A DNA stretch of 63,845 nucleotides from Chloroflexia bacterium (GCA_038229595.1 JBBROH010000003.1:1-63845); one strand, 5' to 3'; positions 49,082 through 59,182 are shown, numbered from the stretch's first letter. Translations and numbers: made by a program. Notes: generated from the sequence alone by a model not told the origin.

Positions 49082-49770
49082 TCAAGCGGCTGGCCCGCTG
49101 CCAGCCTGCCGCATTAGCACGTGCAGGTTGTGACCACTACTACCCGCCGCAAGTCCGCCGGGTTCTTTCGCTTGCCGATGTACCAGGCGCGGCAAGCCTT
49201 GCCACTGGCCGACATGAGCCAGCCTGTGTTCCACCGCCACCCGCTGCCTTAGCTCCGCCCGTCCCCTACTACGCAACTGCCGCTCACGTAGTTCCACCAG
49301 CAGCCGTTCGTCCGGGTGGATGCTCACGCTGCGTCCCCGTTCACTGCTCGTACACTGCGCCCGCAACGGACAAGCTCCACATACCTCGGCGGAGAACTGC
49401 ACCCGCCCCCTCCGCGAATGGCGTTTGCACCTGATTGTGGGGCAACACACTTCGCAGTACACCGTCAACTCTGGCGGGCGGCTGCGTACCAGCTTACTGC
49501 TCAGGTAGCCCCAGTCGATGTGCAACTCAGTCAACTGCACCGCTTGCCCTAGCAGGTCGGCCCTGATCTCGTCGCTCACACTTGCTTCCGGCTGATTGGC
49601 TGCCGTCAGCCCCACCGCTCGTATCAGCTCCAGGTCAAGCTCATACACCACATGACGTTTGTAGCCGTCGAAGCGCAGGCTGCGGCTTTTGCGCCCGTGC
49701 CGCATTTCGCTATCTTCGACTTCTTTGCCTACTTTGTGCGCCAGGCTCTCGCTCAGGTGAGCCGCCAGCG
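49082..49770 (-). mobile_element. IS1182/IS5-like DDE transposase remnant
   Basis: DSEMRHGRKSRS-x-RFDGYK-x-H, HID-x-GY, C-x-x-CPLRAQCT, LRQRVAVEH; N-terminus missing, apparent internal deletions. Confidence 0.7.
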
Positions 49771-50075
49771 TGACGACCTCAAGCTCATCAATGCTGACCT
49801 CTTGCTGAGGCACGAGCAGGAGCAAGAGGTGAGTGCTTCGGTGGCGGGCGCAATTACCAGCCTCAGTGCGGTCTCTAGTCAACAACTACGTAGCGCAAAC
49901 GAGCAGGCGGCTGCTCTCAGTCAGGTGACGATGGCTATTGAGGAGTTGGCCCAGACTGCCTACTCGATAGATGAGACGGCCAACCTGGTAGGCAAGGAGG
50001 CGCAGCAGGCACTCGATGAGCTAGCCAGTTCGCAGCAGGCTGTGAGCGACAGTGCGGCGCAGTTGACTACCCTTG
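49740..50075 (+). pseudogene. Methyl-accepting chemotaxis protein fragment
   Basis: SSQQ...EQAAALSQVTMAIEELAQTAYSI heptad signature; truncated at both ends, abutting the IS remnant. Confidence 0.55.
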
Positions 50076-50363: not shown

Positions 50364-53261
50364 TTAGGGTTGGCTCTCAACCGCCCGGCGCACGACCTTG
50401 CTCAGTTCGCCGCGCCGGATGTTGTCGTTGGGCCGGAAGCAGGTGCCAACCCCGCCGGGGCAAGCTGCACCATTAATGATGCTGCGTCCAGCCAGCGTCT
50501 CAATTGCGTTGTAGGCGAAGTTGTTGCTCGGCACGTCGGCGAAGGTCGGGGTCGGCGGGGTAGTTACGCGGTAGGCTCGCGCCCGCAGCACGATCACCGC
50601 CACCTGCGCCCGGCTGATGTTGACGTTTGGGCCGTAGCAAGAGCTGGCTGCACCGATGGCAGTACACTGCGCGGCGGTCAAGCCGTTGACGACCCCAGCG
50701 TGGTAGGCGGCTTCGACGTAGGGGTAGAAGACGTTGCCGCTACTCACATCGCTGAAGTCAGGAGCGATGGGGTTGTAAGCAGGGATGCCGAAGCCCAGGG
50801 CGGCGATCTTGGCGAACTGGCCGCGAGTGGTGTTAGCGTTGGGCTGGAAGCTGCCGTCGGGGAAGCCGCTGATTGCGCCGCGACAGGCGAGGAACTGGAT
50901 GTCGGCGTAGAAGATGTAAGTGCTGGGTACATCGCTGAAGTTGACGGTGCAGGCGGTTGCACTCGGCTGGGGGGTAGCAGTCGCGCCGCCGGGGGTTTGG
51001 GTCGCCTGCAAGGTAGCAGTTGAGCCAGCCGGGGTCTGGGTAGGCGCAGTGGTGTCGGTCGGTTGCAGCGTGTCAGTCGGCAGGGGGGTATTGGTCACGC
51101 CGACAGGGGTGTTGGTCGGCACCGGCGTAACCAGGTCGAAGCGAGTGACGAAGGCATCGCTACCACCGCCGCCGTAGGTAGTCTGACTGCCACTACCGAG
51201 GATCGGGAAGCCGCCGCCAGTGAGGCCAATGGCGTAGGTGTTACCTGCGCTATCTACTGCGCTGCCAGCACCCTGATCCAGGGTGTTGCCGCCGAGGTAA
51301 GTGGAGTAGAGCCGTACCCCTCGGTTGTCGATCCGGGCCACGAACGCATCGCTGCTACCACCGCCGAAGGTAGGCTGAGGCACATCTCCCCGGATCGGGA
51401 AGTTGTTGCTCTCGGTGCTGCCAACGACGGAGACGTTGCCTGCACCATCTACCGCAATGCCCCTACCGCCATCGAAGGCACTACCACCGAGGTAGGTGGA
51501 GTAAACCCGTGCGCCGGTGTTGCCCAGGGCAGTCACGAACGCATCATCAAGACCGCCACCGTAGCTGGTCTGCTCAGCATTGAGGAGCGGGAAACTGCCG
51601 CCTTCGGTGAGGCCAGTAATGTAGGCGTAACCAGCACCGATGGCGATGCCCATGCCCTGATCCTGAGCACTACCACCCAGGTAGGTAGAGTAGACCCGCA
51701 CTCCTACGCTGTTCATCTCAGTCACAAATGCATCATAGCCACCACCACCATAGGTGTTCTGACCACTACCCAGGGTCGGGAAGCCGCCCCCGGTATAGCC
51801 AGTGACGTAGGCATTGTCGCTGCTGTCTACGGCGATGCCTTGACCATAATCGGGACCGTTGCCGCCGAGGTAGGTAGAGTAAATCCGTGCGCCCGTAGGA
51901 CTAATGGACGTGACAAACGCATCGCCACTACCACCGTAGGTAGTTTGGCTGACACTACCCAGGATTGGAAAGTTGAGGCTGGCAGTGTGGCCGGTGACAT
52001 AGGCTTTGCCCGCGCCATCCACGCCGATGCCGTTACCAATATCGGTGTTGTTGCCGCCCAGGAAGGTGGAGTAGACCCGCCCCCCAGCCGCGTTGATCCT
52101 GGTTACAAACGCATCACCGCCGCCGCCGAGGGTGGTCTGGCTGACACTACCGAGGATGGGGAAGTCGGTGCTGCTGGTGTAGCCGGTGACATAGGCACCG
52201 CCTGCGCCGTCTACCGCAATGCCGCTACCAACATCGCTGCTGCTGCCGCCGAGGTACGTAGAGTAAACCCGTGCGCCGTTGCCGTCGATCTTGGTCACAA
52301 ACGCATCATTACTACCCCCGCCGAAGGTGGTTTGGCTGACGCTACCGAGGGTAGGAAAGTCGGTGCTATTGGTAGTGCCAACAACATAGGCGTTGCCTGC
52401 GTCGTCTACCGCGATGGCGCGACCAGTATCGCCGAGGGTGCTACCAAGATAGGTAGAGTAGCCGAGGGTGGGGTCAATCACCAACGCCAGGGCGCGGTCA
52501 TAGTTTGGCACCAGGAAGCTCACGCTGCCATCGGCCTGCAAGTGGTAGCTGCCTGCCACTGCCGTAAGCGAGCCATCAGCCTGCCGCTGGTAGATGCGGG
52601 CTGCTGCCTGACGCACGTCCCCCACCGCAGTGTGTAGTACCAGGTCGCTGCCACTGGTCTCGATCCGCTCGGCTCCGACCACCGCCAGCCTGATCTGGGC
52701 TGGGTCGGCACCGGGATTCACGATCAAGTCGTATTCAAGCTGACCCCCTGCGTCGGTGTACCAGGCCAGATCGATCCCGTCGTACACACCCTGGTAGCTA
52801 ACGCGGGCGTAGGCGGGTACATTCTCACGCCAGCGGCTGGGGTCGTTGCCGAGCAGGTAGTTGCTGACCCCGGCCAGTTTGTGGCTGGCGGCCAGTTGGG
52901 CACCCATCTTGCCGCCTTGCCACTGGAAGCGTAGGGTAGCAGTCTTGTCAGTCGTGGTCGCGTCGGGCTGACTATTGTGCAGCACCATCACTGCCTCAAC
53001 GTCGGTGAGGAACAGGTTGTAACCGGCTCCACGTGCCAGATAGCGCACGCTGGGGTCGAACTGGCCGAGATTCGGCTCGAAGCGCAGTGCTTGACTGTCA
53101 AGCAAAGCCTTGATGCCCGGTTGTGCCTTGCTCGTGGTGGCGCGGGGCTGGTTGGCTGGCTGGCTGATCGTCTGGCTGAGGTATAGCCCCACCAGGCTGA
53201 TGACTAGCATCATCGCCAATCCAACCTGCAGCCAAAGCCACGTTCGCTTGTTCGTCTGCAT
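50364..53261 (-). CDS. Secreted SBBP beta-propeller surface protein with Pro/Thr linker and C-terminal SLH domains
   Basis: Signal peptide; FEPNLGQ N-domain; about 7 YSTYLGG...GIAVD...YVTG-x-T-x-S-x-x-FP repeats; FSDVP...F-x-PN-x-N-x-TRGQ SLH repeats. Confidence 0.88.
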   Translation of the reverse strand: MQTNKRTWLWLQVGLAMMLVISLVGLYLSQTISQPANQPRATTSKAQPGIKALLDSQALRFEPNLGQFDPSVRYLARGAGYNLFLTDVEAVMVLHNSQPDATTTDKTATLRFQWQGGKMGAQLAASHKLAGVSNYLLGNDPSRWRENVPAYARVSYQGVYDGIDLAWYTDAGGQLEYDLIVNPGADPAQIRLAVVGAERIETSGSDLVLHTAVGDVRQAAARIYQRQADGSLTAVAGSYHLQADGSVSFLVPNYDRALALVIDPTLGYSTYLGSTLGDTGRAIAVDDAGNAYVVGTTNSTDFPTLGSVSQTTFGGGSNDAFVTKIDGNGARVYSTYLGGSSSDVGSGIAVDGAGGAYVTGYTSSTDFPILGSVSQTTLGGGGDAFVTRINAAGGRVYSTFLGGNNTDIGNGIGVDGAGKAYVTGHTASLNFPILGSVSQTTYGGSGDAFVTSISPTGARIYSTYLGGNGPDYGQGIAVDSSDNAYVTGYTGGGFPTLGSGQNTYGGGGYDAFVTEMNSVGVRVYSTYLGGSAQDQGMGIAIGAGYAYITGLTEGGSFPLLNAEQTSYGGGLDDAFVTALGNTGARVYSTYLGGSAFDGGRGIAVDGAGNVSVVGSTESNNFPIRGDVPQPTFGGGSSDAFVARIDNRGVRLYSTYLGGNTLDQGAGSAVDSAGNTYAIGLTGGGFPILGSGSQTTYGGGGSDAFVTRFDLVTPVPTNTPVGVTNTPLPTDTLQPTDTTAPTQTPAGSTATLQATQTPGGATATPQPSATACTVNFSDVPSTYIFYADIQFLACRGAISGFPDGSFQPNANTTRGQFAKIAALGFGIPAYNPIAPDFSDVSSGNVFYPYVEAAYHAGVVNGLTAAQCTAIGAASSCYGPNVNISRAQVAVIVLRARAYRVTTPPTPTFADVPSNNFAYNAIETLAGRSIINGAACPGGVGTCFRPNDNIRRGELSKVVRRAVESQP

Positions 53262-53279
53262 CGTCGTGTCCTTTCTTGC

Positions 53280-53513
53280 CTATTGTTTGCCGGGGGCGGG
53301 TTCAGTGATCGGTTCGCTCAAGGTCGGGACGCTCCCAACTAGAGTTGCGGGGTTAAGCAGAGCGGCGGTTAGCTGTGACAGGTCGGCGAAGTAGCGCAGG
53401 CTACCGCCGGGGATCGTCTCGACCGAGCCGCGCCACACCGCCGCTGCCTCCGGTTCGCGCCAGAGCCGCACAATAAAAACGTAGCGGTCACGCTGACCCC
53501 GTTTGCCTGCCAC
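53280..53513 (-). CDS. Small hypothetical protein (F-x-VRLWRE...WRGSVE...RYF-x-DL-x-x-L)
   Basis: AGGAGG RBS then GTG; compact 77-aa ORF between two surface-protein genes. Confidence 0.65.
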   Translation of the reverse strand: MAGKRGQRDRYVFIVRLWREPEAAAVWRGSVETIPGGSLRYFADLSQLTAALLNPATLVGSVPTLSEPITEPAPGKQ

Positions 53514-53596
53514 AGCCAACCCTCCTGTTGCTCACCGCTGGTTCTGACCAGCCACATCACAGGCGTAGCGGTTGGCTACGCCTGTTCCGTCGCTGC

Positions 53597-54949
53597 TTAC
53601 TTGAGGGTGACGATGACCGGGATCGCGCCAGTGCCGCTGTTGAGGTCGCCCAGAGCCTTGCCGATTACCGCCCCACTGGTCTTGCCGTCAGGGTCAGCCT
53701 TCATCGCATAGCCGGGATTGGTGCTGGCAACGAGCAGGTCGCCTGCCTTGATCGGGCCGAAGCTGGCATCCACCTTGACCGACTTGTAGCTGCCGAGGGT
53801 GACAGCGTTGATGTAGCCGCCGGTCGCCACCCCAGCCGCATCAGCTTGCGCCTCGACTGCTACTGCCTTGTCGCTGATTGTCTGCTGCGGGATGGTGACA
53901 GCCGCCGCCATCTGACCGCTCTGCTTCGCCGCAAGTTCGGTGGCATCGCGGCGGGCGAGGGCCGCCTTGATCGCGGCCTGCTCGGCAGCATAGTGGGCCT
54001 TCAGTTCGCTGCTGGGGACGTTGACTGCCGCATCCACCACCCCGACCACGCCGATGTCATACGCCCTCGTCGCCTTCCTGACGGTGATGACTGGCACGCT
54101 GCCCTGCGCCGGTGCGCTGCTGCCGACGATTACGACGATATCGCCCTGCGACAGCGGTTCGCTGCCGACGTTCTGCATGATGTCAACCACGTAGCCGGTC
54201 TTGGAGCCGCTGACGTTGAGGTCGCCACTCACAAACAGACCGCCGCCGATGTAAGCCGCAGCTGTGCTGGCTACACCGCCCGCTGGCTCAACCCACAGCG
54301 AGTAGGAGGCAGAGGCACCGGTTTTGGCTTGCACACCACGACTGCTGGTACTCAAACCGTATACGCCCCAACCGCCACCACCAGTGGAGGAGGCATACAC
54401 CGCCGGGCGATCAGTGTCGGCAGCCGATGCGAAAACGCCCTTGCCGCCCTCGAAGACCCCAGCAAAGCTGCCAGTAGCGGCACTACTACTAACCGCATAG
54501 CAGCCGGTGCCAGCGGTGATGCACGAACCGCGAACAGCATAGCCGCCACTACTGTTCGACACGCTGAGGGCAACAAAGTTGCTGGTAGTGATCACCAGCG
54601 AGTTGCCGATAGCGTTACCTATCTTCTGGCGACCGTTGTCGAGGAACTTGGCAAGCTGGCCGCGAGTCACATTGTCGCTGGGCAGGAAGTAGGGCAGGTT
54701 GGCCGGTGGCACACAGGGGTTGTTACCACCACAAGGATAGCCGCCGACGATGCCGTTGTCATACAGGCTGTTGATAAAGGGGGCGAACAGGTAGGTGTCC
54801 GGCACGTCTTGGAAGCGTTGCACGAGGGGGCTGCCAGGGGTGCCGCCTTGAGCCTGGGCCTGCCACGCACTACCGCTGAGGAGTAGGGTGAGGGTGAGGG
54901 CGAACACCGCCAGCAGGCGGCTACTACTAAACCGGGGGAAAGAACGCAT
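53597..54949 (-). CDS. Secreted SLH-domain protein with Gly-rich beta-repeat stalk and fibre-like C-terminal domain
   Basis: Signal peptide, RFQDVP...VTRGQLAKF SLH, GVYG/AVRG repeats, GDLLVASTNPGYAMKA...IGKAL tail; ATG after AAGGAG. Confidence 0.75.
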   Translation of the reverse strand: MRSFPRFSSSRLLAVFALTLTLLLSGSAWQAQAQGGTPGSPLVQRFQDVPDTYLFAPFINSLYDNGIVGGYPCGGNNPCVPPANLPYFLPSDNVTRGQLAKFLDNGRQKIGNAIGNSLVITTSNFVALSVSNSSGGYAVRGSCITAGTGCYAVSSSAATGSFAGVFEGGKGVFASAADTDRPAVYASSTGGGGWGVYGLSTSSRGVQAKTGASASYSLWVEPAGGVASTAAAYIGGGLFVSGDLNVSGSKTGYVVDIMQNVGSEPLSQGDIVVIVGSSAPAQGSVPVITVRKATRAYDIGVVGVVDAAVNVPSSELKAHYAAEQAAIKAALARRDATELAAKQSGQMAAAVTIPQQTISDKAVAVEAQADAAGVATGGYINAVTLGSYKSVKVDASFGPIKAGDLLVASTNPGYAMKADPDGKTSGAVIGKALGDLNSGTGAIPVIVTLK

Positions 54950-55210
54950 GATGTGTCTCCTTCTTGGATGAGTTGCTGCATTACCTCGTATTAGTGGTCT
55001 GGGTGGGGCGGCGCACAACCTTCGAGCGTCCGCCGCGTTCCGTGATGTGGTTGTGGTTGATCCGAATGCCCTGACCCCGACCGATGTCGGAGCGGCTGGT
55101 TCTAGCATAGCGCATGGGCGTTCGGCCGGCGTTCAGGCGGTGACGGGCTATGGCGCGAGCAGTTTAGGGCGTGAGCAGCAGCGGCGGCATGACAAAACAA
55201 ATCCCTACCC

Positions 55211-55287
55211 GCTAAAAGGGTAGAGATTTGGAGCTTCAGAGGGCAGATGGCATCCTTGTCAGGGTGGGGGTGCTAAAAGGGTAGAGA
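55211..55287. repeat. 16-bp perfect direct repeat GCTAAAAGGGTAGAGA
   Basis: Copies at 55211-55226 and 55272-55287; the first also forms a CTACCC-N7-GGGTAG hairpin. Confidence 0.75.
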
Positions 55288-55291
55288 CGAA

Positions 55292-55545
55292 TCAGTCTTC
55301 TACTTCGGCCTGCAACCAGTTGGCGACGCTCTGGCGGTTGACACCGAGAGAGCGGGCAATGGCACTGAGGCTGCGACCCTCGCGGTGCAGACGGCTAGCC
55401 TCGGCCCGCAAGTCGGGCTGATGACCCATAGGCTTGCGGCTGGGTGTGAAGTAACGTTGGCAGGCGCGGCATTGATAGCGTTGGCTGCCGCTGGGGTTGA
55501 GGCCTGCCTTGACCGTGTTCGTGTGCTGGCAGTATGTGCAAGCGG
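55292..55545 (-). mobile_element. IS1-family insA-derived segment, in frame with the regulator
   Basis: CxxC-N-K-x-G-x-x-x-x-G-x-QRY-x-CxxC zinc ribbon plus HTH typical of InsA. Confidence 0.7.
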
Positions 55546-58500
55546 TAGTGGGGGCGGGAGGCTGGTAGCCGGGAGCGGCGTAGGCGGGCCACTCGTCGCG
55601 CTCGTAAGCGGCCAGCATCTCGCGGTGGAAGTGGATGTTTAGGTAGTAGCTGCGCCACGCTGCGTCGGCATAGGTTGTCAGCTTGAGCGCGCTCTCAGCC
55701 AGAGCCGTGCTGAAGTAGCGGTGCGCTTCCGCCAGATAGTGGCGGCTCAACTGCTGCTCCCCGGCTGCCCTGTGGTAGCAGGCCAGTTGCCAGCAGAGGC
55801 GTTGGGGGTAGCTGTTGCTACCCTGCTCGGCCCACAACGCTGCCTGTTCGATTTGCTCGGCGATAGTACGGGCAGCAGGCAAGTCAGCCATTTGCAGCGC
55901 AGTCAGCAGCAGATAGGAGTTGGTCTCCTCCAATTCGCTCTGGCTGCCAGCGTGCTTGAGCCGCAGGCTGGCTTGCAGATTACGGCGGGCGGCGGCCAAA
56001 TTGCCCAGCATCACCTGCGCCGCGCCCAGATGCGAGTACAGAAACTCTTGATACCAACTGCTGGAGATAGCTTGCGCGAGGCGCAACCCCTCGCTGGCAG
56101 CCCGTTCAGCCCCGGCGAAGTCCCCGGCCCACAGGCTGTGGACGGCCAGTTGCAGCAACGCCGCCGCCTGACCACGCTGGTTGCCGCAGCTTGCATAGAG
56201 GGTTGCACTCTCTTGCAGCAAGGCCCGACCCCACTCGCTCTGCCCGATGATGTAGTGGACGATACCCAAACGAGCTAGTACCGCCGCCTCGCCCAGCGGT
56301 TTGCCAATTGCGACATAAATGCTTCTTGCTTGCTGGCAATGATCGAGGGCGGCCTGTACCTGCTGCTGATCTTCGGCGGCGGTTGCTAGCATGGCGTGGG
56401 CATCCGCTTCCCCACTGACATCATGGATCGCCTGGCAGAGGGTCAACAGTTCGTCAGCGAAGGTGTGGACGGCGGCATAATCAGCGTGAGCCTGAGCCGC
56501 GACGATGCTGGCCTGCACTATGCGCCGCAATGCGGGCCAGTCGGCAGCGGTGATGCAGGCGCGCGCAGCCTCAAGCAGTGCAGCCGCCCTGTCATACTGA
56601 AGCTCCCCGCTGGCGGCTTGACTGAGCCAGCAGTAGCAGGCCACCTGATTGCCCATCTCACCAAGCGTACCAAAGATGGCGAGGGCCGCTTCAAGATGCT
56701 GGCTAGCCGTCGCCTCTCCCCTGACCACTCCGCTGCTACCTTGCTGGAGAAGGGCGACCGCCTGCCAGTGGGGGTTGCCGTTGGTGGTCGCCAGCGAGAG
56801 CAGAGCCGCCGTCAGCGCATCGCGTTCGCTATGCTTGTCCATGATGGTTGCCAGCTTCAGCTTACGGTGCAGCACTTCAGCCTGCAACTCGGCCTCGCCA
56901 AGCTCCTCGGCGACAGCAGTCATCTGCTCCAAAAGGGCTTGCTGGGCTTCACGCCGCCCCAGCCGCTGGTAAATACCTTCTTGCAGAGCCAATAGTGCAA
57001 AGCAGCGATGTGGATCGTCACCGAGCAGCAGGGCGCGTTCGCTGAAGGTCAATGCCTCGCTGTCGGCATAGAGGCTCAACGCCTGTTGCGCCGCCTGCAA
57101 GTACCAACCTTGCGCCTGCTCATCCTCGCCACCCGCCGCAAAGTGCGCCGCGATCTCCGCCACTGGTTGCTGCGTCGCCTCGGCCAGCAACAAGCCGATG
57201 CGCCGATGTCGCCGCTGCCGACTGACTGGCTCGATCCCGCTGTAGATTGCCCCCTGGATCAGATGGTGGTTGAAGCTGTACTGACCGGCCTCACCTTCGC
57301 GCACCAGCCGTTGGTCAATCAACTCGTCGAGCGCACTGAGTACCCGACCCGCGCTCAACCCCACCGCCTCGCCAACCAGTTCCAGGCTGAAGCTGCTGCC
57401 GATCACACTGGCGACTTCGGCCACCAGCCGGGTATTACTGGGCAGGGGCGCGATCCGGCGGGCGAGTAGCTCCTGCACCTTGAGTGGCAACGGCTCCGCC
57501 TCCGCCATGTTCAACGCCTGCCCACCAGCCAGCCAGTTGTAGACCAGTTCGCCAAGGAAGAAGGGGTTGCCTTCGCTGACCCGATACCAGGCCGCCGCCA
57601 ACTCCTCACCCAACTCCTGCCCCGGCAACTGGGCTACCAACTCAGCGACCGCCGCTGCGGGCAAGCGGTCAAGCGCGATGTGCTGACTAGCTGCCGCGTT
57701 CCGGCGGCGCAAATCACGCAGGGGATGGTCACGCCCAGCTTCCTCCTCGCGGTAGGTAGCGACGATCAGGATCGGGTTACCCGCTGTGCGACCAACCAGA
57801 AATTGCAGCAGGTTGATGCTTGCCTGCCCCGCCCAGTGCAGGTCTTCGAGGATGAGCAGCAGCGGGCGGCTGGCCGCCAGGCTGGTGAGGCATTCGCTGA
57901 CCGCCAGGTAGAGACGGTCACGTTCGCGCTCAGGTTCAAGCGGGGGCAGCGGAGTGATCTGCTGGTTCGCCAGTTCAGGGAGCAGTGGCAGGATCGCCCG
58001 CAGAGTGGCGAGCGCGACTCTGCTCGACTTAAGCAGCGGCATAGCCGCCCGCAGCACAGCGGCCAACGCCTGATAGGCATGACCTTCACCTTCCGTCGTG
58101 CCGCCACGCAGTACCCAGCCACCCTGCTCCAGCACGACCGAGGCCAACTCTGCACTCAAACGAGACTTGCCGACCCCGGCCTCGCCCGCGAGGAAGTAGA
58201 GTAGACCGCGCCCATTGGCCGCTTGCTGCCAGGCGGCAATCAGCAAACCAAGCTCCGGCTGGCGGCCAACAAAGGGCAGGCCCAGTGGCAGCGGCCCAGC
58301 GGTGGCTGGTGGCAGGGGCGCAGCGAAGGTGGGCAAGGGTTGGTCGCTGCGGATTGCATCGTAGAGAGCGGTGGTCTCGACCATCGGCACAGCGGCTAGT
58401 TCGGCTGCAAGGCGGGCGGCGAACTGGCTGTAAGTTGCCAATGCAGAGGCACGATCCCCCATCGCGTAGCGCACGGCCATCAACTGGCGCGTCATCTGCT

Positions 58501-59038
58501 CATGGAGGGGGTCGCGGGCGAGCAGTTGCGCGGCGAAGTGGCTGGCAGCGGGGTAGTCGCGCTGGCGGTGACACTCCTCAACCAGACGTTCCAGGCAGGA
58601 TTGGTAGCTGTAGCGCAGCCACTCGCGGGCGTAGAACAGCCAGTCGGCGTAGAGGTCGGGCAGCAGGTCAGCACGGTAGAGGGCAACGGCCTCAGCCAGA
58701 TGCTCAGGGGCAGCGGCCAGCCGCTCGAAGTCGGCGACATCCAGCCAGTAGTCGCTGGCAGTATTCCACTGCACGGTATCGGCGGTGGTCAGCAGCCAGC
58801 TTTCAGCCGGGGGCAGGGCATGGCGCAACTGGTGCAAGGTGCGGCGCAGGTGGTTGCGGGCGGCTGCTTCGGGGCTGTCGGGCCAAAGGGTGTAGGCAAG
58901 TGTATCACGGCGCAGCGGGGTATGACGGTTGAGCAGCAGGTAGACAAGCAAGGGGGTAGTTTTGCTCGGAGCAGGCAGCAACAACGATTGCCCTTGCCAG
59001 GTTAGCTCAAGCTGACCCAAGAGGTGGATGTGCAGCAT
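55292..59038 (-). CDS. SARP/AfsR-type regulator: wHTH-BTAD - STAND AAA ATPase - TPR, fused to an IS1 InsA-like Zn-finger/HTH
   Basis: LHIHLLGQLEL, ALYRADLL, DPLHEQMTRQLM, GEAGVGKSRL, LILEDLHWA, SEGNPFFL, TPRs, then CTYC...GLNPSGSQRYQCRAC...SLSAIARSLGVNRQSVANW. Confidence 0.88.
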   Translation of the reverse strand: MLHIHLLGQLELTWQGQSLLLPAPSKTTPLLVYLLLNRHTPLRRDTLAYTLWPDSPEAAARNHLRRTLHQLRHALPPAESWLLTTADTVQWNTASDYWLDVADFERLAAAPEHLAEAVALYRADLLPDLYADWLFYAREWLRYSYQSCLERLVEECHRQRDYPAASHFAAQLLARDPLHEQMTRQLMAVRYAMGDRASALATYSQFAARLAAELAAVPMVETTALYDAIRSDQPLPTFAAPLPPATAGPLPLGLPFVGRQPELGLLIAAWQQAANGRGLLYFLAGEAGVGKSRLSAELASVVLEQGGWVLRGGTTEGEGHAYQALAAVLRAAMPLLKSSRVALATLRAILPLLPELANQQITPLPPLEPERERDRLYLAVSECLTSLAASRPLLLILEDLHWAGQASINLLQFLVGRTAGNPILIVATYREEEAGRDHPLRDLRRRNAAASQHIALDRLPAAAVAELVAQLPGQELGEELAAAWYRVSEGNPFFLGELVYNWLAGGQALNMAEAEPLPLKVQELLARRIAPLPSNTRLVAEVASVIGSSFSLELVGEAVGLSAGRVLSALDELIDQRLVREGEAGQYSFNHHLIQGAIYSGIEPVSRQRRHRRIGLLLAEATQQPVAEIAAHFAAGGEDEQAQGWYLQAAQQALSLYADSEALTFSERALLLGDDPHRCFALLALQEGIYQRLGRREAQQALLEQMTAVAEELGEAELQAEVLHRKLKLATIMDKHSERDALTAALLSLATTNGNPHWQAVALLQQGSSGVVRGEATASQHLEAALAIFGTLGEMGNQVACYCWLSQAASGELQYDRAAALLEAARACITAADWPALRRIVQASIVAAQAHADYAAVHTFADELLTLCQAIHDVSGEADAHAMLATAAEDQQQVQAALDHCQQARSIYVAIGKPLGEAAVLARLGIVHYIIGQSEWGRALLQESATLYASCGNQRGQAAALLQLAVHSLWAGDFAGAERAASEGLRLAQAISSSWYQEFLYSHLGAAQVMLGNLAAARRNLQASLRLKHAGSQSELEETNSYLLLTALQMADLPAARTIAEQIEQAALWAEQGSNSYPQRLCWQLACYHRAAGEQQLSRHYLAEAHRYFSTALAESALKLTTYADAAWRSYYLNIHFHREMLAAYERDEWPAYAAPGYQPPAPTTACTYCQHTNTVKAGLNPSGSQRYQCRACQRYFTPSRKPMGHQPDLRAEASRLHREGRSLSAIARSLGVNRQSVANWLQAEVED

Positions 59039-59182
59039 CGGTACGCGCTCCAATGTTAAGCCTTGTGCTGATTATACCCGATGCCACCACTGTGGTTGGC
59101 AGCCAGTTGATCACCGAATACTGCTGCCCAGTGTGTGACTACAGCATAGCTGATGTAGCGCAGTATGTAGCTAGCCGCTATC

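Follow-up and report, generated by a model that had tools for sequence, protein, structure and literature searches.

In Actinobacteria, SARP activators are well known for controlling the production of antibiotics. In Streptomyces coelicolor, the activator AfsR joins a SARP domain (winged helix plus BTAD) to a STAND ATPase and a C-terminal helical sensor, and it activates the small-protein gene afsS, which lies in a neighbouring co-oriented unit; AfsS is repeat-containing, about 63 amino acids (aa) long and largely unstructured. Small SARPs, such as ActII-ORF4, DnrI and RedD, consist of winged helix and BTAD and use operators of heptameric repeats. MalT, a STAND ATPase activator with a helical sensor, is controlled by the proteins MalK, MalY and Aes, which shows that a protein made under the regime of such an activator can control it, and serves as a model for small-protein feedback on a STAND activator. 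According to a published rule, SARP targets contain direct repeats at distances of 11 or 22 bp, and 8 bp separate the 3' repeat from the -10 (PMC10936776); the afs box consists of two direct repeats with a period of 11 bp, which border directly on the -10 and take the place of a good -35 (PMC10936776). Here we analyse a stretch of 63,845 nucleotides (nt) from a Chloroflexia bacterium, referred to throughout as the window, which carries genes for a large SARP/STAND regulator, an SLH-anchored 'fibre' protein, a small protein denoted RLW and a DUF7948-SBBP-SLH beta-propeller. Judged from its sequence, this region is best explained as an AfsR/afsS-type regulatory module that comprises two transcription units.

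Several likenesses and differences frame this comparison. The window regulator shares the BTAD domain and STAND ATPase of AfsR, has a weakly matching winged helix and a putative C-terminal helical sensor, and adds an InsA-like zinc-ribbon/helix-turn-helix (HTH) tail. RLW corresponds to afsS as a small-protein gene in a neighbouring co-oriented unit, and it directly follows the regulator in the sister genome from the same genus (G001) and in most other loci. This likeness is one of position and putative function only; unlike AfsS, RLW is modelled as a folded domain of three strands and a helix. Whereas AfsR and afsS serve antibiotic pathways, RLW systems are found in Chloroflexota, Eremiobacterota and Gammaproteobacteria, and RLW is probably co-transcribed, as a rule, with cargo genes, here for cell-surface proteins. 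The SARPs of about 310 aa that accompany RLW in other loci match the small SARPs in domain content and in having promoters of repeated heptamers, here 3-4 at 11 bp, but RLW loci are devoid of biosynthetic gene clusters, with peptidases, glycosyltransferases and unknown proteins encoded 3' instead. No description of an RLW partner gene in actinobacterial small-SARP systems was found in the literature searched. MalT differs in its LuxR-type DNA-binding domain, and its inhibitors have no homology to RLW. Finally, the surface proteins resemble SLH proteins of monoderm bacteria and Chloroflexota in carrying a signal peptide, a set of one to three SLH domains and a passenger that varies (SBBP, FG-GAP, Kelch), but their genes sit under a dedicated SARP-box promoter, behind or around the RLW gene. 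Taken together, the module appears to be an AfsR/afsS-like system outside Actinobacteria, combined with a new small-protein family.

Regulator, terminator and SARP-type promoter

The window derives from a metagenome-assembled genome of 4.25 Mb (318 contigs, 87% complete). The original prediction described four co-oriented genes forming one compact unit, and open reading frame (ORF) calls indeed give four long, adjacent ORFs between 59053 and 50364, all on the minus strand and in the order predicted:

55292..59053, minus strand: large SARP/STAND regulator, 1253 aa (ORF, Pfam)
53597..54949, minus strand: SLH 'fibre' protein, 450 aa (full ORF 55108..53597)
53280..53513, minus strand: RLW small protein, 77 aa, GTG start at 53513, ribosome-binding site AGGAGG
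50364..53261, minus strand: DUF7948, SBBP beta-propeller, Pro/Thr linker and three SLH domains, 965 aa (Pfam)

The gaps within the last three genes measure 83 nt between fibre and RLW genes and 18 nt between the RLW stop codon and the SBBP-SLH start. The single unit did not survive: an intrinsic terminator 60 nt past the regulator stop codon separates the regulator from the other three genes and divides the row into two transcription units. Between the regulator and the fibre gene lie the following elements:

55188..55230, minus strand: intrinsic terminator of the regulator gene, 13-bp stem, loop of 7, TTTTGT (stem-loop 55230..55198)
55272..55286, minus strand: first copy of CTCTACCCTTTTAGC, a sequence with two copies in the 4.25-Mb genome
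55211..55225, minus strand: second copy of CTCTACCCTTTTAGC, forming the 5' arm of the terminator hairpin
55117..55134, minus strand: SARP box, GAACGCC (55134-55128), GGCC, GAACGCC (55123-55117), 11 bp start to start
55104..55109, minus strand: -10 hexamer TATGCT, 7 bp past the 3' repeat, with no -35 element

From 55134 to 55104, box and -10 thus read GAACGCC-GGCC-GAACGCC-CATGCGC-TATGCT, about 60 bp beyond the terminator, with a transcription start predicted near 55097. The arrangement fits the published SARP geometry in its 11-bp spacing and in a gap to the -10 of 7 bp, close to the 8 bp of the rule. A relaxed form of the box pattern gives 15 matches in the genome, and identical repeats together with a good, well-placed -10 occur at 55134 alone; one other relaxed match, on contig C172, has the weaker -10 TACTCT. 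In G001, the sequence just upstream of the promoter has diverged, but box and -10 are kept (GGACGCT-GGCG-GAACGCC-AATGCGC-TATGCT). The terminator is also kept, with one compensatory change in its stem (T-A in the window, C-G in G001). A scan for sigma-70 promoters returned sites no more frequently than in shuffled sequence and missed the SARP-type promoter, as one would expect in the absence of a -35. An Rfam search of 49.8-59.5 kb gave no credible match.

The regulator comprises the following parts:

58793..58966, minus strand: OmpR-type winged helix (Trans_reg_C-like), aa 30-87, PF00486 at E 8.5e-4, a weak match
58349..58726, minus strand: BTAD domain, aa 110-235, PF03704 at E 1.7e-14, with identical coordinates in the genome search
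57761..58276, minus strand: AAA_16 STAND NTPase, aa 260-431, PF13191 at E 6e-25
55604..57106, minus strand: putative helical-repeat (TPR/MalT-like) sensor region, aa ~650-1150, assigned by homology
55307..55543, minus strand: C-terminal InsA-like zinc ribbon (aa 1171-1199) and HTH (aa 1214-1249), an in-frame fusion (Pfam)

The protein had been described as a BTAD-ATPase-TPR regulator, and Pfam confirms the first two parts. BTAD scores 54.8 bits against a cut-off of 22.1 bits and lies C-terminal to the winged helix, as in a large SARP, and the Walker A (GEAGVGKS) and Walker B (LLLILEDLHW) motifs of the STAND ATPase can be read in the translation. No Pfam TPR model matched the window regulator at E<=0.01; the 'TPR' label derives from weak TPR_12/TPR_MalT matches in the homologous regions of other regulators. 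Alignment with the orthologue places the likely true start at ATG 59038 (MLHIHLLG). The G001 orthologue shares 75% identity, C-terminal tail included. Within the tail, Zn_ribbon_InsA scores 20 bits, under its cut-off, and HTH_23 28.1 bits, over its cut-off. The tail is about 87% identical in the G001 orthologue (locus L020, 81-3902), and a paralogous second regulator of G001 (L037, 3425-7288) carries it too; in the set of loci examined, no regulator from outside the window genus was seen to have it. The tail has the look of a second DNA-binding domain that was domesticated and retained, rather than of a recent insertion-sequence (IS) insertion.

An active IS1 or mobile cassette was ruled out as the source of the tail, given the in-frame fusion, its conservation in two G001 proteins and the terminator that follows, with no transposase frame. 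An anti-phage NLR defence system was likewise ruled out, as PADLOC matched none of the four proteins and the architecture is that of a transcription factor. A close paralogue of the regulator resides on a 4.5-kb contig of the window genome (C258, 1634-3742) and is apparently split or frameshifted around 1634-1766.

The two copies of CTCTACCCTTTTAGC, exactly two genome-wide, are 61 bp apart and fall between the regulator stop codon and the SARP box. The pair is conserved 5' of RLW in G001 (L020, 3861-3936) and in a genome from another genus (G004; L026, 9130-9213). The first copy might be recognised by the InsA-like tail or might offer an alternative partner for RNA pairing. An IS end or a repetitive extragenic palindromic element was ruled out on account of the copy number.

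The RLW family and its regulators

The RLW protein of the window has the core FIVRLWREP..WRGSVE..RYF..L..L. Its AlphaFold2 (AF2) model contains three beta strands and one helix, with a predicted local distance difference test (pLDDT) of 85-93 in the core, and ends in a disordered, variable tail. Compared with the G001 orthologue, the ratio of non-synonymous to synonymous substitution rates (dN/dS) is about 0.2. A library-wide HMMER search found 62 relatives and a profile search more than 460, all annotated 'hypothetical'. In alignments, the family core reads FIVRxWxEP...WRGSVEHVxSGxRxYFxxLxxLxxFI; conservation covers the first ~55 residues and gives way to a hypervariable C-terminal tail. We define the family as proteins of 60-110 aa with the pattern [FL][IV]VR.W.E ... 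WRG.[VI].H ... G.R.[YF]F..L..L..F, and the window protein matches its profile at E 3e-21. RLW has no match in Pfam, NCBIfam or PADLOC, and DUF6454 is touched by just 7 of 120 members, at E >= 0.005. Matches of the RLW model to retroviral integrases were rejected as a generic beta-beta-beta-alpha motif. Full-text literature searches, of incomplete coverage and therefore no proof of absence, found nothing on SARPs in Chloroflexota or on the RLW protein. With its more than 460 members, RLW is a candidate for a new family of regulatory proteins, one without name, domain model or structural relative. Two near-identical 58-aa RLW paralogues with near-identical 5' regions are encoded on another contig of the window genome (C157, 554-730 and 8757-8933).

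To place the family in its gene context, we compiled 53 non-redundant RLW genes with their flanks from the window's order, other Chloroflexota classes, Eremiobacterota/Vulcanimicrobiota, Nevskia and Silanimonas. Genes in fetched loci were called by a simple longest-ORF heuristic, and the regulator class of some loci was assigned not by Pfam but by jackhmmer with queries derived from the window. A BTAD and/or AAA_16 regulator gene lies within 1 kb of 32 of the 53 RLW genes and within about 8 kb of 41, several of the loci without a regulator in that range being truncated by contig ends. This pairing spans three phyla (Chloroflexota, Eremiobacterota and Gammaproteobacteria). The original prediction, which was to stand or fall with conservation of the association in other genomes and had suggested a neighbourhood analysis of the small-protein family, is thereby borne out for regulator and RLW. 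In five genomes (27 Mb) with 36 BTAD genes, 11 of 37 RLW matches lie within 3.5 kb of a BTAD gene, compared with about 0.35 expected by chance. The usual gene order is regulator, RLW, variable genes. In the window, the regulator lies 1.8 kb upstream of RLW with the fibre gene between them, and in G001 regulator and RLW are directly adjacent. At some loci, RLW stands directly 5' of the regulator, with a box upstream and no common cargo; such pairs tie RLW to the regulator and not to the cargo.

The RLW phylogeny also follows the class of the regulator, which changes 3 times on the tree against a mean of 12.5 when shuffled (0 of 200 shuffles as low), even though single genomes hold members of several clades. 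One divergent RLW clade (support 98/96; LFLVRLW...W.GKVQH...) adjoins HTH_3(XRE)/NB-ARC/TPR regulators of about 800-880 aa. In these loci (L025, L030, L031 and L032; genomes G027, G006 and G011), RLW is transcribed divergently from the regulator, and at two of them it leads directly into DUF7948-SBBP-SLH genes. A second module in G001 has an InsA-tailed regulator divergent from RLW, which is followed by the gene of an 859-aa SLH protein.

Phased repeats were surveyed in the 250 nt 5' of 52 RLW genes as 7-mer direct repeats with <=1 mismatch, at spacings of 8 to 24 bp and with shuffles as control. Repeats spaced by 11 bp occur upstream of 41 of the 52 genes (221 pairs); shuffled sequences gave about 12 regions and other spacings 7-20. 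Large BTAD-AAA_16 regulators are associated with two YGGACGC-type repeats, 7-9 bp from a -10, and SARPs of about 310 aa with 3-4 GTGAKR repeats (9/10 cases). The XRE/NB-ARC/TPR-linked clade has no convincing 11-bp box and so serves as an internal control. Box type follows regulator type. The 18-mer box CGGACGYTTTTCGGACRC, scanned with <=1 mismatch over five genomes (22.8 Mb in total), has 8 occurrences, all 8 of which are within RLW/regulator loci, before RLW or a gene preceding RLW; the reversed pattern, used as control, gave 1. RLW is the hallmark early gene behind SARP boxes in many genomes.

Two further arrangements were seen among these loci. In the gammaproteobacteria Nevskia (L041/L042) and Silanimonas (L047), a SARP of ~320 aa accompanies four GGTGAYS repeats at 11 bp and an RLW protein of 92-109 aa; the 3' genes encode a 1326-1689-aa protein (Trypsin_2, Peptidase_C92 and C70 matches), three unknown proteins and an S8 peptidase. 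At locus L023 (G030:C28:228000-247900), three tandem units of box, RLW and unknown protein lie downstream of one AAA_16-TPR regulator, each with an identical CGGACGTTTTTCGGACAC box. An SLH protein follows the first two units, and the third RLW has an in-frame TGA.

Proposed mechanism and competing explanations

In the mechanism that we propose, the first unit would produce the regulator alone and end at its own terminator. A signal would activate the protein through its ATPase/sensor part, whereupon two SARP domains would bind the two GAACGCC repeats and recruit RNA polymerase. One mRNA would then encode the SLH fibre, RLW and the DUF7948-SBBP-SLH propeller, with an altered cell-wall display as the outcome. 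That the ATP-activated regulator binds the repeats via its SARP domain and recruits polymerase for these three genes is, in our assessment, probable; genes, terminator, box, conservation, covariation and the restriction of boxes to these loci are observed, and binding, activation, co-transcription, the signal and the role of RLW are what we infer from the DNA. RLW itself most likely acts on the regulatory circuit, either feeding back on the activator or working downstream in the manner of AfsS, because it is paired with the regulator where cargo is missing and its phylogeny follows the class of the regulator. An involvement in the cargo proteins is less probable. More tentatively, RLW may be an obligate partner of BTAD/TPR-type activators, made from the activator's own target promoter and tuning the gain of the switch by feedback or feed-forward. 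The joint proposal that RLW, as such a partner, binds the helical (BTAD/TPR-like) scaffold of the activator or else RNA polymerase is put forward as a possibility with the same reserve. Of the functions raised in the original prediction, that of the small protein as a modulator is a hypothesis, and predation or contact is speculation.

Several observations weigh against this mechanism. The winged helix, although in the expected position and kept in the G001 orthologue, scores 19.8 bits, under the 26.2-bit cut-off. The gap from box to -10 is 7 bp rather than the canonical 8. No 11-bp repeat was found at 11 of the 52 RLW promoters, and the paralogues on C157 have no recognisable 11-bp box either. 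RLW pairs also with non-SARP STAND regulators, a difficulty for any single partner surface, and neither a PDB profile search nor Foldseek against PDB and BFVD returned a structural relative of RLW under E 0.06, so that any activity assigned to RLW is conjecture. The complete four-gene set is conserved within one genus alone, where synteny is expected regardless. Moreover, OmpR/PhoB-type response regulators bind direct repeats of the same geometry.

This last point, together with the weak winged-helix match, would suit a scheme in which an OmpR/PhoB-family response regulator encoded elsewhere binds the 11-bp repeats and the SARP is a mere neighbour. Such a scheme appears improbable to us: box sequence and class of the neighbouring SARP vary together, boxes are restricted genome-wide to RLW/regulator loci, and about two thirds of the cases have an adjacent regulator gene. 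A still smaller chance attaches to a neighbourhood without functional meaning, with genes adjacent by descent in the genus and repeats arising by coincidence. It would account for the confinement of the full set to sister species, for a fibre family that elsewhere has no link to RLW or SARP genes and for the sheer abundance of SLH genes in part of the order; it would leave unexplained the BTAD proximity, the 32/53 pairing, the 11-bp enrichment, the tree and 18-mer statistics, and the recurrence of RLW followed by DUF7948-SBBP-SLH in another family of the order.

Two other explanations give RLW a different role. As a cargo helper, RLW would be a cytoplasmic chaperone, export factor or assembly factor outside the regulatory circuit. 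Translational coupling of RLW to the gene that follows is frequent (overlaps of 4-22 nt), and many of the 3' proteins are secreted or belong to the envelope (SLH propellers, DUF4352, peptidases, glycosyltransferases). We nevertheless consider such a helper unlikely, as the 3' proteins fall into 26 unrelated clusters among 40, several loci pair RLW with a regulator and no cargo, and the RLW phylogeny tracks the class of the regulator. Alternatively, RLW could be the precursor of a modified or secreted (RiPP- or pheromone-like) peptide that is sensed by the TPR regulator, as in an RRNPP-type quorum circuit. A conserved N-terminal portion with a hypervariable, disordered tail beside a STAND/TPR regulator is what one would expect of such a system. 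The conserved portion is, however, a confidently modelled three-strand and helix fold rather than a leader helix; RLW lacks a signal peptide, no conserved maturase, protease or exporter is encoded close by, and RLW pairs as well with SARPs of ~310 aa in which a sensor domain is missing. On account of the folded domain and the absence of maturases, we judge a peptide precursor very unlikely.

If RLW is such an obligate partner, then activator, RLW and phased-repeat promoter would constitute a widespread, undescribed three-part switch placed before varying secreted or surface cargo. The SARP logic of repeats one DNA turn apart before a -10 is seen in uncultured Chloroflexota and Eremiobacterota and in some Gammaproteobacteria, where it is probably wired to surface and secreted proteins, and it yields a sequence-based rule by which hundreds of orphan regulators from poorly studied phyla could be assigned predicted targets. 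Since the boxes occur in their own loci alone, the activator/operator pair looks locus-specific, and such a compact pair could serve as an orthogonal expression switch. For the window organism, the module predicts conditional cell-wall display of the SLH fibre and the beta-propeller.

Surface cargo and history of the locus

Both large surface proteins contain PF00395 and have hydrophobic N-termini with AQAQ or a transmembrane-like segment; putative signal peptides were read off such N-termini. The SBBP-SLH gene contains internal 192-nt repeats, and genes of the same DUF7948-SBBP-SLH type directly follow RLW in G027 and G011, two genomes from the same order as the window organism and a different family. 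Within the order, an SLH protein is encoded near 13 of 22 RLW genes, the other cargo including SLH-anchored propellers of FG-GAP, Kelch and Rax2-like type. Part of the order is very rich in SLH genes (>120 domain matches per genome), so that their enrichment near RLW is real and less extreme than that of the regulators. Outside the order, what lies 3' of RLW differs from locus to locus without any relationship, with zinc-ribbon proteins, glycosyltransferases, DUF4352 and giant multi-peptidase proteins among the products, and 40 proteins fall into 26 clusters; the RLW-SLH link is confined to the window's order. Surface proteins had been proposed as the apparent targets of the regulator. The SARP-type promoter between regulator and surface genes is consistent with such control in the window, and as a general property of RLW loci the surface link does not extend beyond the order. 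Between the sister species, the passenger of the SLH protein has been exchanged, DUF7948 and SBBP in the window (50364-53261) corresponding to an FG-GAP propeller in G001 (L020, 4333-6090); signal peptide, Pro/Thr linker and SLH anchor are the same.

The sister genome contains the same regulator, RLW, SLH-anchored protein and fibre orthologue in a different order. In G001, the regulator with its conserved terminator and promoter is followed directly by RLW and then by the SLH-anchored protein with the FG-GAP passenger. The fibre orthologue (84%) is located at the beginning of another contig, C9, where the final 56 codons of an SLH-protein gene, matching the C terminus of the window SBBP-SLH protein, stand in front of it. 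This placement behind the end of an SLH gene suggests that the G001 order is most likely regulator, RLW, FG-GAP-SLH protein and fibre, with contigs C14 and C9 presumed to join. Inspection of the corresponding junctions in the window identified the following features:

55095..55103, minus strand: left copy of the 9-bp direct repeat AGAACCAGC, at the 5' edge of the transposed fibre segment (read from sequence)
54980..55094, minus strand: degenerate 3'-end remnant of an SLH-protein gene, forming the fibre 5' untranslated region (UTR), which aligns with the G001:C9 junction and the 3' end of the window SBBP-SLH gene
53549..53595, minus strand: stem-loop in the fibre/RLW gap, an inverted repeat with no T-run
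53537..53545, minus strand: right copy of AGAACCAGC (read from sequence)
49082..49885, minus strand: DDE transposase fragment (DDE_Tnp_1_6), immediately 3' of the SBBP-SLH gene (Pfam)

The copies of AGAACCAGC bracket the whole 1.56-kb fibre segment, and G001 has a single related copy, GGAAGCAGA. The decayed remnant measures 115 nt, and its counterpart on C9 is the junction between the SLH-gene end and the fibre gene. By comparison of the junctions, the transposase fragment occupies the position of the fibre gene in G001 and may mark the rearrangement. Remnant, bracketing repeats and transposase fragment together indicate that the fibre gene was relocated to its present place in the 5' UTR, behind the SARP promoter and ahead of RLW. 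The fibre gene is thus a secondary recruit to the module. A box-like GGAACGC-GGC-GGACGCT in the fibre 5' UTR was rejected as a promoter; its spacing is 10 bp, no -10 is nearby, and it is part of the SLH-gene 3' remnant. The stem-loop in the fibre/RLW gap is a possible partial terminator or RNA stabiliser.

The true start of the fibre gene is ATG 54949, as judged from the ribosome-binding site AAGGAG and the signal peptide. In the protein, the signal peptide and a single SLH domain are followed by a stretch rich in Gly, Ser and Ala and without helices, and the C-terminal beta domain includes a long helix. In its AF2 model (mean pLDDT 77), the Gly/Ser/Ala-rich residues 120-250 are confidently placed yet devoid of regular secondary structure. 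The family is large, with well over 80 full-length members in Chloroflexia, and elsewhere its genes stand alone. The C-terminal part (aa ~255-450; 53597-54187, minus strand) has a marginal fold match, at E 1e-3, to phage capsid decoration/cement proteins, among them those of TW1, Pam3 and HFTV1 and lambda gpD-like proteins, with template modelling (TM) scores of 0.54-0.68 on the target.

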